Positions 2,390-64,000 of a stretch of DNA of 64,000 nt are shown piece after piece. This stretch comes from Candidatus Limnocylindrales bacterium (GTDB taxonomy: Bacteria; Moduliflexota; Moduliflexia; Moduliflexales; JAUQPW01). The notes beneath the pieces are model-generated. The model was not told the origin of the DNA. It saw only the letters and a program-made list of their open reading frames with translations, and searched no databases. The first letter of the stretch is position 1. Each line of letters starts with the position of its first letter. The stretch spans positions 1 to 64,000 of the forward strand of contig DATMBG010000043.1 of NCBI GenBank assembly GCA_035559535.1. Reading direction: 5' to 3'. The position numbers and the translations under genes were made by a program.

Positions 2390-3838
2390 TTAGAGGCTTT
2401 TACAGATAACCGATATGGCTTCAGCAAGGATAGGGAACTGGGACACTTCCAGGGTTCTAGGATCCAGGAGAAGTTCATCATTCTGAATCCGTGCCAGGAT
2501 AGGAGGATTATAGGCCCGTAATCGCTCTTCCAGGCATTGAACGGAGAATTTAAAAGGTTTAACGGCAACGACCTTGGTGGGAAGTTTCTGTAGTGGAAGG
2601 GCACCGCCACCTACCTGAGAGAAGTCATCCAGAATTCTGGCAGAAAAAGACTCTCCAGAGGGTTGCCCGGGTGTATCTGGGTTGGTTGGAAAGTGTTGGG
2701 TTTCTAACAGAAGATTCAACAGGTTTTTAGCCCTCGCTTCCAGCTCAGGCAGCTTCATGGTTAACATACGAAGGGTGGGGATTTCCTGAATAGCTTTTTC
2801 TGGATCCAGGTATTCCAGGAGAACCGCTTCCAGGCCGGCCAGGGTCATTTTATCTACCCGAATAGCCCGGGTCCATGGGTTTTTCTTAAGTTTCTCAATA
2901 TAGGTCGCCTTACCCACAATCAATCCGGCCTGGGGACCGCCCAGGAGCTTATCTCCACTAAAGGTAACAATATCCACCCCGGCCCGGATACAATCCTGGA
3001 CGGTAGGTTCTTTTTCTAAACCATAGCGGCTCAGATCGATCAGGCTTCCGCTTCCCAGGTCTTCCATGACGGGAACATGATATTCCCGTCCCAGTTGAAC
3101 CAGCTCTTCCAGGGAAACCTCGGACGTAAAACCTAGGATCCGGTAGTTACTGGTATGAACTTTAAGGAGAAACGCCGTGTTAGGGGTAATGGCTTCCCGA
3201 TAATCCCGGAGATGGGTCTTGTTGGTAGTTCCCACCTCTTTGAGGATAGCCCCGCTTTTTACCATAATATCCGGGATTCGGAAAGAGCCTCCGATCTCGA
3301 TGAGCTGGCCTCGAGAGACGATTACCTCTTTTCCCTGGGCAAAGGTGTTTAAAACCAGTAAGACCGCTGCCGCATTATTATTAACCACAAGTCCGGATTC
3401 AGCCCCGGTTAGCCTTCTCAGGAGCCCTTCGATGTGGGTGTATCGTTCTCCCCGCTCCCCGGTACTGAGATCCAGTTCCAGATTAGAATACTGTCGGGCA
3501 ATCTCGGTGATTCTTTGACAAACGCGTTCACTTAAAGGAGCCCGTCCCAGGTTGGTATGGAGAATAACTCCGGTGGCATTGATAAGATATTTTAAATGAG
3601 GTTCCATCTGGCTTTTTACCACAACTTCCAGTTCTGCGATGAGCTGAGACTTATCGATTTGAGGCAATCGCGTAGGATCTAAACTCTCCAGGATTTGGGA
3701 GCGACGCGCATTAAGAACTTTTCGAATCCCTTCGACGACAATTTCCCTGGGAAATTGTTCTAAAAGTTCCTTCACCAAAGGTTCTGCCAGCATCGCATCT
3801 ACAGAGGGGATTTGGGTAAGATAGGCCCGCTTATCCAT
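2390..3838 (-). CDS. selA: L-seryl-tRNA(Sec) selenium transferase
   Basis: INATGVILHTNLGRAPL, VNNNAAAV, EIGGSFRIPDIM, FSGDKLLGGPQAG (PLP lysine). Confidence 0.97.
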   Translation of the reverse strand: MDKRAYLTQIPSVDAMLAEPLVKELLEQFPREIVVEGIRKVLNARRSQILESLDPTRLPQIDKSQLIAELEVVVKSQMEPHLKYLINATGVILHTNLGRAPLSERVCQRITEIARQYSNLELDLSTGERGERYTHIEGLLRRLTGAESGLVVNNNAAAVLLVLNTFAQGKEVIVSRGQLIEIGGSFRIPDIMVKSGAILKEVGTTNKTHLRDYREAITPNTAFLLKVHTSNYRILGFTSEVSLEELVQLGREYHVPVMEDLGSGSLIDLSRYGLEKEPTVQDCIRAGVDIVTFSGDKLLGGPQAGLIVGKATYIEKLKKNPWTRAIRVDKMTLAGLEAVLLEYLDPEKAIQEIPTLRMLTMKLPELEARAKNLLNLLLETQHFPTNPDTPGQPSGESFSARILDDFSQVGGGALPLQKLPTKVVAVKPFKFSVQCLEERLRAYNPPILARIQNDELLLDPRTLEVSQFPILAEAISVICKSL

Positions 3839-58780: not shown

Positions 58781-59392
58781 ATGAGGCATAAAATTTCAAA
58801 CTATTTAATCCTGTTAACTGTATTTTCAATAGTATCGGGAATTACGTATCTTCCCCCCCTAGCCGGTTCCTCAAAAGAAGTTTCTAAAGAGCCTTCGAAC
58901 GATCCGGCTGATGAAGCCCTGGTTCAACGGTTTGAGTATCTAAGCAAACACGGCAATTCATCTTGTTCTCTATCGTTTCTTAACTCTATTCCTTCCATGC
59001 CAGATACAGCGCGTCTGCAGGGCTCATGCTGCAGTCCTATGAGTTTACATCGTTATAGCGAACAGATTAAAGGTCTAAAAAAATATAGCTCTATCCCGGA
59101 AATCCCATCGGATCCCTATGACATTGAGGTAAAACTTGCTAAAAAATTACTTACTTCGGACCGGAGCCTCCAATTGACTTCCGAGGAACAAAGGGCGTAT
59201 GATTATGCGATGCAGCACGCTGATGAGGGGGGACCCTGTTGTTGTAAGTGTTGGCGATGGTATGTATACAGTGGGTTGGGCAAATATTTAATTCGAAATT
59301 ATAAGTTTACAGGAGAACAGGTCACAGAAGTTTGGAATCTTTCAGATGGGTGTGGAGGGGGCGACAAGTCCGGTGGGCATCACCATACCTGA
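58781..59392 (+). CDS. Exported Cys-rich hypothetical protein
   Basis: N-terminal TM/signal; SSC, GSCCSPM, GPCCCKCWRW, DGCGG, terminal HHT. Confidence 0.75.
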   Translation: MRHKISNYLILLTVFSIVSGITYLPPLAGSSKEVSKEPSNDPADEALVQRFEYLSKHGNSSCSLSFLNSIPSMPDTARLQGSCCSPMSLHRYSEQIKGLKKYSSIPEIPSDPYDIEVKLAKKLLTSDRSLQLTSEEQRAYDYAMQHADEGGPCCCKCWRWYVYSGLGKYLIRNYKFTGEQVTEVWNLSDGCGGGDKSGGHHHT

Positions 59393-59686
59393 TGTCTATA
59401 CAAGAAAACACTTGAAAACATTATCGACCATAATCTGGAAGTATATGTATGCGCTGAACGAGAAAGAAAGCTTTCAGCATCGGGAGGTTTCTTTTCCAAC
59501 TCCTTTTGGATTGCCTCCTGAAAAGCTTCAAAACCCAGGGAATAGAGTGGTTTCCTGTTCACAAAAAAGGTGAGAATTCTGCTGGTCTGGACCTCTTTAC
59601 CTAACTCTACTTCCTTAAAGTCTCTGGTGTAAGCTGGGTTTCTACATCACAGTCTTAGGTAGGTTAGACCTCTTGATCTCCAGCTA

Positions 59687-61303
59687 TCAACCGATCTTGG
59701 TAAGGGTGATCATTCCCCCTTGCATGTGCATGGGCTTATGGCAGTGAAAGAACCAATCTCCTGGGTTATAGGCGGTGAATTCGATATCTACCGAACCCAT
59801 ATGGGCCTCCACATCCACACTATCCTTCACGATAGGAGCAGAAAGTTTCTGGCCGTTTACTGCCAGGACCTTGAAGGACTGGCCATGTAGATGCATGGGG
59901 TGGGCTTCCATACTGTGGTTAAAGAAACGAACCCGGACCAGGTCCCCCTTCCGGAGGCGTAGAGGCTCGGTCTTGGGATACTGCCTGCCGTTGATAGTCC
60001 AGGTATCAGAGCCCATCATCCCGCCGCTTAGGGTAAGGTTAAAGGTTCGTTCCTGCCCGAAGGGTTTTGGCAAGATTTCCTTGCCCAGACCTAAACGGTA
60101 GTGCCAAAGGTTCAAGCCGGTTATCCCCTCTGGTGGCCTGTCTGGTTCTATTCCTTCGTATCCATCGTATACTACCAGGACCCGTTCACCTGCAGCAGGA
60201 TGGCCGGGCTCGGCACAAAACAGGAACCAGGTACCGGGTCGGTTTGCTACGAAGAGGGCATCGTATCGCTCGCTGGGGGCAATGGGTATTGCATCCACCT
60301 CTACAGGTTGCGCCAATGGATTCCCATCTGTGTGGGTTACCTTCAAGCGGTGTCCCGCCAGGCGGAGGACATGGGTGTGGTCGGCACTTGCGTTGATAAT
60401 CCGAAGCCGGACGCGTTCTCCTTTGTGGACGTGAAGGGGTTCGGTGGCAGGATAGGCCTTTCCGTTAATGGTCAGGGTATCGTAAATGGGCCTCTGTCTG
60501 CTACCCATCATGCCACCCATTCTATCTTCCATTCCTTCACGATCCATCATGTTCTCCATCATCTGGCCCATCATGCCATTCATCATCCCTCCCATACTAC
60601 CACGACGGCCTGCGGTCCCTGCCCGTGTGCTCGGGAGTGGGCGTCCTATCCCGGTGGCCCAGTCGTCGAGAATCAAGGTGTACTCACGATCGAAGGTGGG
60701 TTCCTTTTCCTCCGCAGGTTCGATGATGAAGGGGGCATAGAGACCCAGGTCGAGCTGTCGATGCTCCTGGAAGTGGGTATGGTACCAGCGAGTCCCTGCA
60801 GGTCGGGCCTCGAACTCATAAACAAAGGTCTCTCCGGGCCTGACGGGATCCTGGGTGATTCCTGGCACTCCGTCCATGGGATTGGGCACATCCACCCCAT
60901 GCCAGTGGATGGTCGTCGATTCAGGAAGTGCATTCTTCAAGACGATCCGAACCCGCTCCCCTTCCTTGAGACGGATCTCGGGACCCGGAATCTGACCATT
61001 GTACGCCATGGCCTTGATAACTTTACCCGGAGCCAGCTCCCAGTCCACTTCCCGTGCCTCCAGATAGATCTCTCGGATTCCAACAGCACCCTTCTGTTGC
61101 CTGACACCCTCCTGTTCCAGGAGCAGGGCTCCATCACCAGCTATGAGGGCCAGAGTACCTAATCCTACCCGTCCAGATATTTTTAGAAACTCTCGCCGTG
61201 AGAAAGACTTCTCCTTTATTGCTGTTATTCCGGCATTATCCCTTAAATGCCCTTGATCTTTCATGATTCCGTTCCTCCTACTTTCTATGGAAGGTTTATT
61301 CAT
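59687..61303 (-). CDS. Tat-exported multicopper oxidase with Met-rich insert
   Basis: SRREFLK, HWHG, WYHTH, HPMHLHG, HCHKPMHM; start may be downstream. Confidence 0.93.
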   Translation of the reverse strand: MNKPSIESRRNGIMKDQGHLRDNAGITAIKEKSFSRREFLKISGRVGLGTLALIAGDGALLLEQEGVRQQKGAVGIREIYLEAREVDWELAPGKVIKAMAYNGQIPGPEIRLKEGERVRIVLKNALPESTTIHWHGVDVPNPMDGVPGITQDPVRPGETFVYEFEARPAGTRWYHTHFQEHRQLDLGLYAPFIIEPAEEKEPTFDREYTLILDDWATGIGRPLPSTRAGTAGRRGSMGGMMNGMMGQMMENMMDREGMEDRMGGMMGSRQRPIYDTLTINGKAYPATEPLHVHKGERVRLRIINASADHTHVLRLAGHRLKVTHTDGNPLAQPVEVDAIPIAPSERYDALFVANRPGTWFLFCAEPGHPAAGERVLVVYDGYEGIEPDRPPEGITGLNLWHYRLGLGKEILPKPFGQERTFNLTLSGGMMGSDTWTINGRQYPKTEPLRLRKGDLVRVRFFNHSMEAHPMHLHGQSFKVLAVNGQKLSAPIVKDSVDVEAHMGSVDIEFTAYNPGDWFFHCHKPMHMQGGMITLTKIG

Positions 61304-61669: not shown

Positions 61670-62245
61670 TTAGCTCCTCTCACCTTGAATCAACCTTCTA
61701 AAAAATTTTAGGGCATCCTCGGAATCCCACTCTTGAGGTCCTATAACTTTCAAAACCAGTATCCCGTTCTTATCTACAATAAAGCTTTCGGGAACCCCGG
61801 TGGTTGCATAAAGTTTTTTTATCTTTCCCGTGGGATCCAGCAAAACGGGGAAAGTCAGATGATACTTTTGTATAAAGGGTTCAACAACCTGCTTTCCCAA
61901 GGCATCGATGCTGATCGCCAGTATCTCAAAATCTTCTCCTTTTAACTGATCATAAAGCCGTTGCATGGACGGCATCTCGTAAATACAAGGAGGGCACCAC
62001 GTGGCCCAGATGTTGATAAATACCACCTTGCCTCGATAATCTGACAACTTTCTTTCTGAATCATTTAAATCCGGGAAAGTAAAGTCCGGGGCCAAAGACC
62101 CTATTTTAAGAGGTTCAGGTTTTTGAAGGGTTTTTGAGCTTTTATCCCTCTGTATAAAAGCCAGCGCAAACACAGTTAGAACCAGAAGGATCGGGCTGAT
62201 CACAAGGATCAAAATTAGCTTTTTCTCCATACCTGATGCGGTCAT
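61670..62245 (-). CDS. TlpA/ResA-like membrane-anchored disulfide reductase
   Basis: N-terminal TM, APDF, WATWCPPC, GVPESF. Confidence 0.92.
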   Translation of the reverse strand: MTASGMEKKLILILVISPILLVLTVFALAFIQRDKSSKTLQKPEPLKIGSLAPDFTFPDLNDSERKLSDYRGKVVFINIWATWCPPCIYEMPSMQRLYDQLKGEDFEILAISIDALGKQVVEPFIQKYHLTFPVLLDPTGKIKKLYATTGVPESFIVDKNGILVLKVIGPQEWDSEDALKFFRRLIQGERS

Positions 62246-62352: not shown

Positions 62353-62712
62353 CTACCTCTGAAGCCAGGGCCATCTGATAGTTTCTGGGTTAAAAATTGT
62401 AGGACCTATCATTTTACCTTCCATAGTCACATTCTTCTTTTGCTCTGCAGTGAGTTTCGACAGATTTTTTTCCAGATCCGGAGTTTCCTGTAAGAGAATC
62501 AGTTTGCCATCGGGTGTTTTAAGGACATGGGCGCCATGGCCTTCCCCTCCGGGGCAGACTCCAGGCTCAAGTTTTACACCGGTATCTGTTGGCAATACAC
62601 AATAAATATGACCGGTAAGGGTCTGGGTTTCTTCTGCAGCCATGGTTACGGCTGCTGTGGAGATCAAAAGAATTGCACTTATAGTGGATATAATTTTTTT
62701 AAAACTAAACAT
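62353..62712 (-). CDS. Small exported protein with Cys/His motif
   Basis: Signal peptide; GHIYC..GVCPGGEGHGAH; RBS AGGAGG. Confidence 0.7.
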   Translation of the reverse strand: MFSFKKIISTISAILLISTAAVTMAAEETQTLTGHIYCVLPTDTGVKLEPGVCPGGEGHGAHVLKTPDGKLILLQETPDLEKNLSKLTAEQKKNVTMEGKMIGPTIFNPETIRWPWLQR

Positions 62713-62846: not shown

Positions 62847-63770
62847 CTAATCTGTAACCTTCCAGTGCGCTCCCCCATCCGAGCTTTTGAAAACCTTTCC
62901 ATCGCTACTTCCTGCATATAATACCCGGGTTTCAGGGTGAATGACCAGAGTTGTAATGTTGCTTAACCCTTCCCCCACTCGATTCCAACTCCGTCCCTTA
63001 TCCTGGGATTTATAAACCCCATCTTTCATTCCCACGTAGAACACCTGAGGATCTTGGGGATCCAATATAAACGTATAAACCGTTTGGTTTGCAGGTAGAC
63101 CACCCGCTTTGCTCCATCCTCAAAATCAGTCCATGCTTAGATAAAGACCATCGGCTGTCGCAGCTATCAACCAGATTCCTCCCATTCCTGTGGGGACGTT
63201 GGCTACCGTTAGGGTCTTTACATCAGCAGGAGGCCCATCGTCCACCCGTTGCCAACTCGCTCCTCCATCCTTGGATCGGTATAGCCCTTTATCTACTACC
63301 CAGGCATGAAGCCGTTTATCCGTAGGATGAACGGAGAGTCCATGGACATCGCTACTGGGAAGTCCATTTTTAACCGTCTTCCAGCTTATCCCTCCATCGG
63401 TACTCTTAACTACCCACATGTCGTGGCCCGCTGCATACATCACTTGAGGATCTGTCGGATCTAGTACTAAAGCCATAAAGTCAAAGTTTTTAAGATCCCC
63501 TTTGAGATCCAGCTTTTGCCAGGTTTTTCCTTCATCGGTGCTTTTATAAAGTCCATGATGAGTTCCCTTGAAAAGGGTATTATTCTTGGGGTTAAGAACT
63601 AAAACATGGAGATGCTCCATTTCGGTCATCTCCATCCTATGACTTTCAAGTAAGGAGGATTCCTTCTCTTGGGCAGAAACTTCCCTATTGAGAGCCAAGA
63701 AAGAGATCCTTCCTCCAAAAACTGCCATAGTCAACAGGGTCAAGATTAACCACAGATTTTTTCTCATCAT
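62847..63770 (-). CDS. Exported Asp-box (BNR) beta-propeller, predicted selenoprotein with U-F-U motif
   Basis: ORFs 63126-63812 and 62847-63065 share a frame; only TGA 63128-63126 and TGA 63122-63120 interrupt it; SxDxGxxW repeats on both sides; SECIS-like hairpin follows. Confidence 0.8.
63091..63107 (-). promoter_or_regulatory. Putative bacterial SECIS element
   Basis: GCGGGT-GGTCT-ACCTGC stem-loop starting 12 nt after the second TGA. Confidence 0.75.
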
Positions 63771-63860
63771 TTTTTCATATCCTCCCTTATAATTCAGAAA
63801 GCAGTAGGCCATAATGACTGGTCACCTTTCGCCTTCTACCTTCTGTTTTCTGCTTTCTAT

Positions 63861-64000
63861 TTATTGCCAGGTGTTTCCACCATCCTGACTTTTAAGAATG
63901 TTTCCCCTGGCCGTTAAAGCATAAACCCTCCTGGATTCTACAGGATGCCGGGCTAGAGCCAGTATGTCTTCCCTAACCCCTTCTACAGGACTCCAGCTTA
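63861..64000 (-). CDS. 3' end of another Asp-box beta-propeller protein (partial)
   Basis: SWSPVEGVREDILALARHP..ILKSQDGGNTWQ-stop. Confidence 0.75.
   Translation of the reverse strand, partial: SWSPVEGVREDILALARHPVESRRVYALTARGNILKSQDGGNTWQ

Follow-up and report, generated by a model that had tools for sequence, protein, structure and literature searches.

A predicted beta-propeller selenoprotein with a U-F-U site, encoded among copper and thiol-redox genes in a Candidatus Limnocylindrales bacterium

A 2026 review of prokaryotic selenoproteins tabulates 119 families and subfamilies by motif and by Pfam or NCBIfam identifier; the motifs include CxU and UxxU, the latter with two closely spaced selenocysteine (Sec) residues (PMC13188914). 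We analyzed a 64,000-nucleotide (nt) stretch of DNA from a Candidatus Limnocylindrales bacterium (GenBank assembly GCA_035559535.1, contig DATMBG010000043.1, positions 1 to 64,000; hereafter the window), in which a minus-strand gene close to the end is very probably, judging from comparison with its relatives, a true selenoprotein gene with two Sec codons. The catalogued families that it most resembles carry a selenocysteine insertion sequence (SECIS) within the open reading frame (ORF): Prx-like UxxU proteins, the metal-binding UxxU family NF041115, and the CxU rhodanese-like and UshA-like proteins (PMC13188914). Points of likeness are a UGA aligned with Cys, a hairpin with a G-rich loop right after the UGA, and a distribution among anaerobic or microaerobic lineages that use Sec; in addition, some of the catalogued families have two close Sec residues or a metal-binding role. 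In contrast to those families, which have other folds, the protein described here is a BNR/Asp-box beta-propeller and not thioredoxin-like, and its C-x-U or U-x-U motif lies within a modified Asp-box. The novelty lies in the family, in its fold, in the Sec-bearing Asp-box site and in the copper-cluster context; the family appears to be a widespread, uncatalogued one that would use the ordinary bacterial decoding mechanism, and it adds a fold and a motif from outside the current catalogue.

None of the 119 catalogue entries is a BNR, Sortilin, PSII_BNR or NF045728 family and none has a U-x-U motif (PMC13188914), in line with a preliminary description of the sequence that recognized neither a characterized Asp-box propeller selenoprotein nor this motif. 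The terms BNR, Ycf48, WD40, propeller and glycosyl are absent from the main texts of the review and of the deep-Sep and BSepDB papers (PMC13188914, PMC12013277 and PMC13326102, respectively) and from the deep-Sep and BSepDB supplements, the BSepDB part being possibly incomplete. A literature search that left aside the supplements of older metagenome surveys turned up no report of a selenoprotein of this kind or of a link between the family and copper, and for F510_1955 (see below) it yielded the Anoxybacillus genome paper alone.

Described BNR propellers share the fold class only. Ycf48/HCF136, the GH74 enzymes, DAIP and the structure 3b7f belong here, and many homologues of our protein are named "photosystem II stability/assembly factor-like" in the source databases. 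The PSII_BNR domain scores above its cut-off (39.7 versus 27 bits), which shows only kinship of fold, and the Ycf48 equivalog NF010237 gives 39.4 bits against a cut-off of 326. Unlike the Ycf48 and GH74 propellers, the selenoprotein is found in a copper and thiol-redox context, not one of photosynthesis or glycan use, and its family is defined by an invariant C-F-C/U site. Among NCBIfam models, none reaches its cut-off for any of the seven family members tested; the best, NF045728 (F510_1955 family glycosylhydrolase), scores 101–131 bits in all seven against a cut-off of 175 (130.6 for the window protein, 101–130 for six relatives). This model likewise describes a BNR-repeat propeller with a signal peptide, and is named after an Anoxybacillus BNR lipoprotein, F510_1955, that is called GH74-like and is of unknown function (PMC3948429); neither the passage on it nor the model's matches give a link to C-F-C or to copper or redox genes.

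The minus strand of the window reads ATG GAC TGA TTT TGA GGA TGG AGC AAA GCG GGT GGT CTA CCT GCA across the two in-frame TGA codons. Under translation table 11, the frame is broken into two ORFs, 63126–63812(−) and 62847–63065(−); with TGA read as Sec (U), it runs to a TAG as a single protein of 307 amino acids, with a GGAGG that precedes the ATG at 63770 by 10 nt. The protein begins with a hydrophobic signal or anchor and contains six Asp-box-like repeats together with U215 and U217. It matches the Pfam families Sortilin-Vps10 (66.9 bits), PSII_BNR and BNR (38.3 bits), and its AlphaFold2 model (mean predicted local distance difference test score 88.7, predicted template modeling [TM] score 0.80) is all-beta from residue 56. 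Foldseek placed the model closest to 3b7f, GH74 enzymes, DAIP and Ycf48 at TM scores of 0.5–0.6, consistent with a BNR/Asp-box propeller; these nearest solved structures are generic BNR propellers, and none represents the U-F-U/C-F-C family. The T-R-N-G-G-F-S-W Asp-box of an upstream paralogue aligns without gaps to S-M-D-U-F-U-G-W, and the spacing of the repeats is therefore preserved. The preliminary description had reported the two TGAs, the 307-residue frame with its signal or anchor and the preserved spacing, all of which were borne out by the letters, the translation and the paralogue alignment.

A protein search gave 1167 matches at E ≤ 0.001 among 3068 candidates. Of the best 120 of these, 49 are full length with C-x-C-G-W, 60 are gene calls that end at ...D-C-F, nine end at ...x-D and two are other cases; gene calls thus stop exactly at the Sec codon in 69 of the 120. 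The closest two relatives, at 93% and 88% identity, are both called only as far as ...LSMD, and several of the shortened calls carry NCBI names as BNR-like proteins. In an alignment of 56 sequences, C215, F216, C217 and G218 are invariant, and H53, H55, H116, M196 and D177/D178 are nearly so; the latter residues look like a set of metal ligands.

Two scans of DNA were made at the level of codons. The patterns of the first included SMDCFCGW, so the uniform C-F-C of 75 of its 80 loci (halomonads, Noviherbaspirillum and others) is partly by construction; one further locus, from the window's own genus, has TGA at both positions, and four lack the motif. The second scan was restricted to the patterns TGMGG and DVHAL..DP, neither of which touches the motif, and returned 61 loci, five without the motif and 56 with it in 57 instances (one locus has two copies). 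The codon pairs were TGC/TGA in 34, TGT/TGA in 16, TGA/TGA in five and TGT/TGT in two, both of the last being thaumarchaeal. The second position is thus TGA in 55 of the 57 instances; the first is TGA in five and otherwise TGC or TGT. No instance in this motif-independent scan had TAA or TAG at either position (0/57). After the TGA of the Sec-type genes, the frame invariably stays open over some 90 conserved residues (G-W-K-x-V-G-G-L-P ... D-G-G-x-T-W), as far as a shared C terminus, and the true stops of 51 complete Sec-type ORFs are TGA (33), TAG (11) and TAA (7). Sec-type genes came from metagenome-assembled genomes (MAGs) of Methylomirabilota/NC10, Rokubacteria, Tectomicrobia, Nitrospinota, Deltaproteobacteria, Binatia, Acidobacteriota, Chloroflexota, Actinomycetota and Gammaproteobacteria, with coding sequence conserved downstream of the UGA across phyla. 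Most relatives have C-F-U and aerobes have C-F-C; U-F-U was also found in Methylomirabilota (L114), Nitrospinota (L157), Tectomicrobia (L160) and the two-copy locus (L133). In every member examined, both columns hold either Cys or TGA. The preliminary description had proposed looking for D-C-x-C-x-W or a conserved TGA among homologues, and D-C-F-C-G-W or TGA is what they have at exactly these two columns. The aerobic Cys form occurs in halomonads and Noviherbaspirillum, which can be cultured, and should make the function of this conserved copper-cluster protein accessible to experiment.

Some individual loci in these scans deserve mention. Two Methylomirabilota MAGs (L112 and L114) encode near-identical proteins with TGC at the first position in one and TGA in the other, which looks like a recent switch from Cys to Sec or the reverse. 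The L133 MAG contig has tandem copies at 482–1489 and 1315–2403, one with U-F-U-G-F and one with C-F-U-G-W, and the same hairpin in each. The Cys form is also archaeal (L115 and L117, Thaumarchaeota MAGs), and the L117 copy adjoins genes for DsbA-like, DUF1775 and cytochrome b561 proteins. At a Halomonas plasmid locus, the annotation consists solely of hypothetical proteins. PF25852.1 appears in the precomputed domain lists of most homologues.

A SECIS-like hairpin had been proposed for the window, and one was located by comparison with relatives, in TGA-bearing members only. We aligned 60 nt, starting from the Asp codon, for the window gene and 53 other Sec-type sequences; L113, whose hairpin region is identical to that of the window, and L116, whose sequence is incomplete, were omitted. 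The Sec-type consensus, GUGGGC[GGUCU]GCCCAC, is nearly invariant even at synonymous codon positions, and its six base pairs are standard in all 54 sequences (324/324 cells), whereas the full six-pair hairpin is formed by none of 60 distinct Cys-type sequences. Relative to the consensus, the window hairpin has two compensatory changes, U-A to C-G and C-G to U-A, with the loop kept, and the L140 hairpin has one, C-G to G-C. Pairing fell to 35–55% when the 3′ partners were shifted, and the observed covariation score was reached by three of 500 shuffles. A seventh base pair (columns 24–42), which 21 of the 54 sequences leave unpaired, proved unreliable and was not counted. The minimum free energy (MFE) structure of 63060–63140(−) was different from the hairpin and nonsignificant, and it was replaced by the comparative hairpin; the case for the hairpin comes from comparison and not from energy.

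The hairpin begins 12 nt past the second UGA and 18 nt past the first. The published model of bacterial SECIS elements has a loop of 3–9 nt with G in the first positions, a stem of 4–16 bp, 16–37 nt from UGA to loop and an MFE of −7.5 kcal/mol or below (PMC13188914). For both UGAs, the window hairpin falls within these bounds, with a 5-nt GGUCU loop, 6 bp, 18 nt (second UGA) or 24 nt (first) to the loop, and −7.5 kcal/mol alone (z −2.94) or −9.0 kcal/mol with flanks. Its short upper stem-loop, GGUC-type apical loop and position about a dozen nucleotides after the UGA presumably make it a counterpart of the E. coli fdhF SECIS. It differs from the fdhF type in a perfect 6-bp stem, no bulged U, and in that it would have to serve two UGAs 6 nt apart in the U-F-U members, which constitute a natural test of the reach of one bacterial SECIS.

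The spacing bears on whether both UGAs are decoded. Only the second might be read efficiently as Sec, with the first mostly terminating or acting as a selenium-dependent attenuator and yielding little full-length protein. At the first position, Cys predominates among the relatives (50 of the 57 instances), and a 12-nt spacing would suit the second UGA better if E. coli rules hold. Against this, Sec is predicted at the first position in intact genes from at least four other lineages and in nine of the best 120 database matches, the 24 nt from the first UGA to the loop lies inside the 16–37 nt of the published model, and families with closely spaced Sec pairs (UxxU) are catalogued (PMC13188914). 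We regard decoding of the second UGA alone as improbable and prefer the reading in which both are translated as Sec.

The genome (5.6 Mb in 58 contigs, 95.8% complete) contains the whole bacterial Sec pathway. The preliminary description had noted selA in the window, which we confirmed (Table 1), and had advised that selB, selC and selD be confirmed in the genome; all three are present above curated cut-offs. The tRNA-Sec gene scores 74.5 bits and is called SeC with anticodon tca by ARAGORN, selB scores 408.6 bits without internal stops, and selD (G000:C29:76668-77594) scores 388.6 bits with a single in-frame TGA, so SelD itself is a selenoprotein in this genome. TGA terminates the neighboring DsbD_2, LysR and multicopper oxidase genes; because of this, and because selA and selB lack internal TGAs, TGA is not a general sense codon here.

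These observations also bear on the explanation that the two TGAs are assembly or sequencing errors or that TGA encodes an ordinary amino acid (genetic code 4 or 25, or near-cognate suppression). In its favor, the fourth Asp-box position is commonly Gly, and one G-to-T change would make TGA out of GGA. Both TGAs are nevertheless present in a 93% identical orthologue in L022, the sole other genome of the genus. We also compared contigs from four runs of four studies over the gene, in two of which (X2 and X6) retention of the TGAs can be vouched for. Over the full length of the gene, the X2 contig has 33 substitutions, all outside 63064–63254; the X6 contig is identical to the window over 62847–63156; the X5 and X8 contigs also cover the TGA site. 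None of the four runs has an indel over the gene. Sequencing error is excluded because independent assemblies (the same-genus MAG and contigs from two other studies) carry identical TGAs, and reassignment is at odds with the termination of the DsbD_2, LysR and multicopper oxidase genes by TGA, with the lack of internal TGAs in selA and selB and exactly one in selD, and with the Cys residues (rather than Gly or Trp) that homologues have at the two columns. This explanation is accordingly very improbable. The preliminary description had named sequencing error as one finding that would undo its proposal and had judged recoding likelier than two nonsense mutations; the Cys/Sec columns, the hairpin, the machinery and the independent assemblies support that preference.

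Several points weigh against the assignment of two Sec residues. The support for selenium insertion is comparative in kind. The window hairpin is weak, its −7.5 kcal/mol lying exactly at the limit of the published model, and a plain MFE fold of the region was no better than shuffles (z −0.68 for 81 nt and −0.24 for 49 nt). E. coli SelB is strict about spacing, whereas one SECIS would here serve two UGAs 6 nt apart. In a comparison among incomplete MAGs, selB was above cut-off in three of five Sec-type versus two of five Cys-type genomes, so the presence of machinery does not separate the two types. Against the same-genus MAG, the 90 codons downstream have four synonymous and nine nonsynonymous differences (17 and 12, respectively, in the 214 upstream codons), so that constraint on the C terminus is not evident in this one pair, in which the numbers are small; no other result failed to show it.

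Two of these observations, the low hairpin energy and the downstream ratio, together with the end of the table 11 ORF at codon 215, are what a decaying pseudogene would show, or a gene for a 214-residue N-terminal product only, in which the TGAs are real stops and the downstream frame a relic. Several lines of evidence make this improbable as well. At least three diverged lineages retain the two TGAs, with the frame downstream open and no indel, and in the X2 contig the codons past the UGAs have four synonymous changes and one nonsynonymous change. Pairing of the hairpin has persisted through two compensatory changes with the loop kept, the C-terminal blades retain the conserved columns of the family, and a propeller lacking two blades would be unlikely to fold. 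The two-Sec assignment remains by far the better account.

Under this assignment, the single mRNA hairpin would recruit SelB-GTP-Sec-tRNASec, and UGA215 and UGA217, 18 and 12 nt upstream of it, would both be read as Sec. The product would be an exported propeller of 307 amino acids in which one of the Asp-box hairpins has become a vicinal U-F-U site. The site might bind Cu(I), or might cycle between a reduced form and a diselenide or selenenylsulfide form, with a DsbD-to-TlpA relay keeping the Cys/Sec pair reduced. An extracytoplasmic role in copper and thiol redox is proposed because of the conserved neighbors (DsbD/CcdA-type, TlpA-like, multicopper oxidase and SCO1/SenC) and the metal-ligand-like residues. 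The coordinates of the gene, its features and its neighbors in the window are given in Table 1.

Table 1. Features of the selenoprotein locus and the selA gene in the 64,000-nt window
Feature	Position	Strand	Basis or remarks
Selenoprotein gene, 307-aa exported BNR/Asp-box beta-propeller (predicted)	62847-63770	minus	Translation with TGA=U, ending TAG
First in-frame UGA, codon 215	63126-63128	minus	Aligns to first Cys of C-F-C
Second in-frame UGA, codon 217	63120-63122	minus	Aligns to second Cys of C-F-C
C-terminal 90 codons, two propeller blades with Asp-boxes	62847-63119	minus	Reached only if both UGAs are decoded
Putative SECIS hairpin GCGGGU[GGUCU]ACCUGC	63091-63107	minus	Comparison with relatives
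BNR propeller paralogue, 3′ end, 33% identical, normal Asp-box at the U-F-U site	63861-64000, continuing past the window	minus	Alignment
119-aa exported protein with Cys and His residues, no family match	62353-62712	minus	tblastn hits only in L022 and L113
TlpA-like membrane-anchored thioredoxin, WCPPC	61670-62245	minus	Pfam AhpC-TSA 103.4, Redoxin 88.3, Thioredoxin_8 49.5
Multicopper oxidase, start approximate	59687-61303	minus	Cu-oxidase_3 159, Cu-oxidase_2 152.3, Cu-oxidase 102.3 bits
selA (selenocysteine synthase)	2414-3817	minus	622.1 bits versus cut-off 267.9, no internal stops

On the minus strand, the genes follow in the order LysR, a 169-amino-acid ORF, a TlpA-like thioredoxin, a DsbD_2 (CcdA-type) membrane protein, a 172-amino-acid ORF, the BNR paralogue without C-F-C, the U-F-U selenoprotein, the 119-amino-acid exported protein, a second TlpA-like protein (WCPPC) and the multicopper oxidase. 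Like the 119-amino-acid protein, the 172- and 169-amino-acid ORFs (C43:64786-65304 and C43:67513-68022, respectively, both minus) have no family match, and relatives of all three are confined to the same genus. Relatives of the TlpA-like protein encoded in the window were found in 86 of 146 family loci, and this thioredoxin is the likely reductant of the U-F-U site. The multicopper oxidase lies directly downstream of the TlpA-like gene, terminates in TGA followed by TAA, and has a twin-arginine-like leader and a long Met/Gly-rich insert (MGGMMNGMMGQMMENMM...).

Neighbors of the Sec-type genes were surveyed at 15 loci (108 scanned ORFs), where greedy ORF picking in high-GC DNA hides some genes. 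TlpA-like proteins were encoded at ten loci, SCO1/SenC at six, Rieske proteins at six, multicopper oxidase at five and cytochrome c at three; less frequent were DsbD_2 (two), P-type ATPase (Cu-type)/HMA (two), DsbA-like proteins (two) and CtaG (one). At 11 Cys-type loci (49 ORFs), cytochrome c followed directly in six, and DsbD (four), DUF411 (four), TlpA-like (three), DsbA-like (three) and SCO1 (two) proteins were encoded nearby; multicopper oxidase, CtaG, DUF1775 and PCYCGC occurred once each, and one locus had no matches. We take DUF411 and DUF1775 to be CopG-like and YcnI-like copper proteins, respectively. Glycan-use genes were absent from all the family neighborhoods scanned (the window and the 15 Sec-type and 11 Cys-type loci).

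This co-occurrence of a DsbD-type reductase, a TlpA/ScsD-like thioredoxin and copper proteins recalls the Scs relay. To our knowledge, Scs systems have neither a BNR propeller component nor Sec; the present clusters are built around the propeller as their conserved core. Likenesses to Scs and DsbD-TlpA systems, as set out in two accounts of them, are that DsbD-like, TlpA-like and sometimes DsbA-like proteins are co-encoded and that there is a link to copper stress (PMC10907172, PMC11634996).

The conserved neighbors tip the balance slightly toward a site that acts outside the cytoplasm in copper handling. Two considerations pull the other way: the copper role is deduced from gene neighborhood and nothing else, and Asp-box hairpins usually lie on the propeller rim, not in an active site. 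For the picture as a whole, we see about an even chance that this family, located outside the cytoplasm and distributed across many bacterial phyla, is the first of beta-propeller selenoproteins, one in which a Cys/Sec-x-Sec motif on an Asp-box hairpin forms a Cu(I)-binding or diselenide center working with multicopper oxidase, SCO1 and DsbD-TlpA, and in whose U-F-U members one SECIS decodes two UGAs. If true, this would tie the use of selenium directly to copper handling in the periplasm.

Two further ORFs were noted near family genes. In the window, a Cys-rich exported ORF at 58781–59545(+) (L173:2782-3546) adjoins the oxidase; it has C-C-S-P, P-C-C-C-K-C-W and H-H-H motifs and no Pfam match, and contains two in-frame TGAs near its end when TGA is read through. 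Its motif is loosely like that of the PCYCGC family, a selenoprotein family listed in the review. At locus L125, a thioredoxin/AhpC-like ORF on the plus strand, about 700 nt downstream of the BNR gene, reads ...F-Y-M-V-A-T-U-G-S-C..., which suggests a second putative selenoprotein, of the UGSC or TxxU type, in the cluster.

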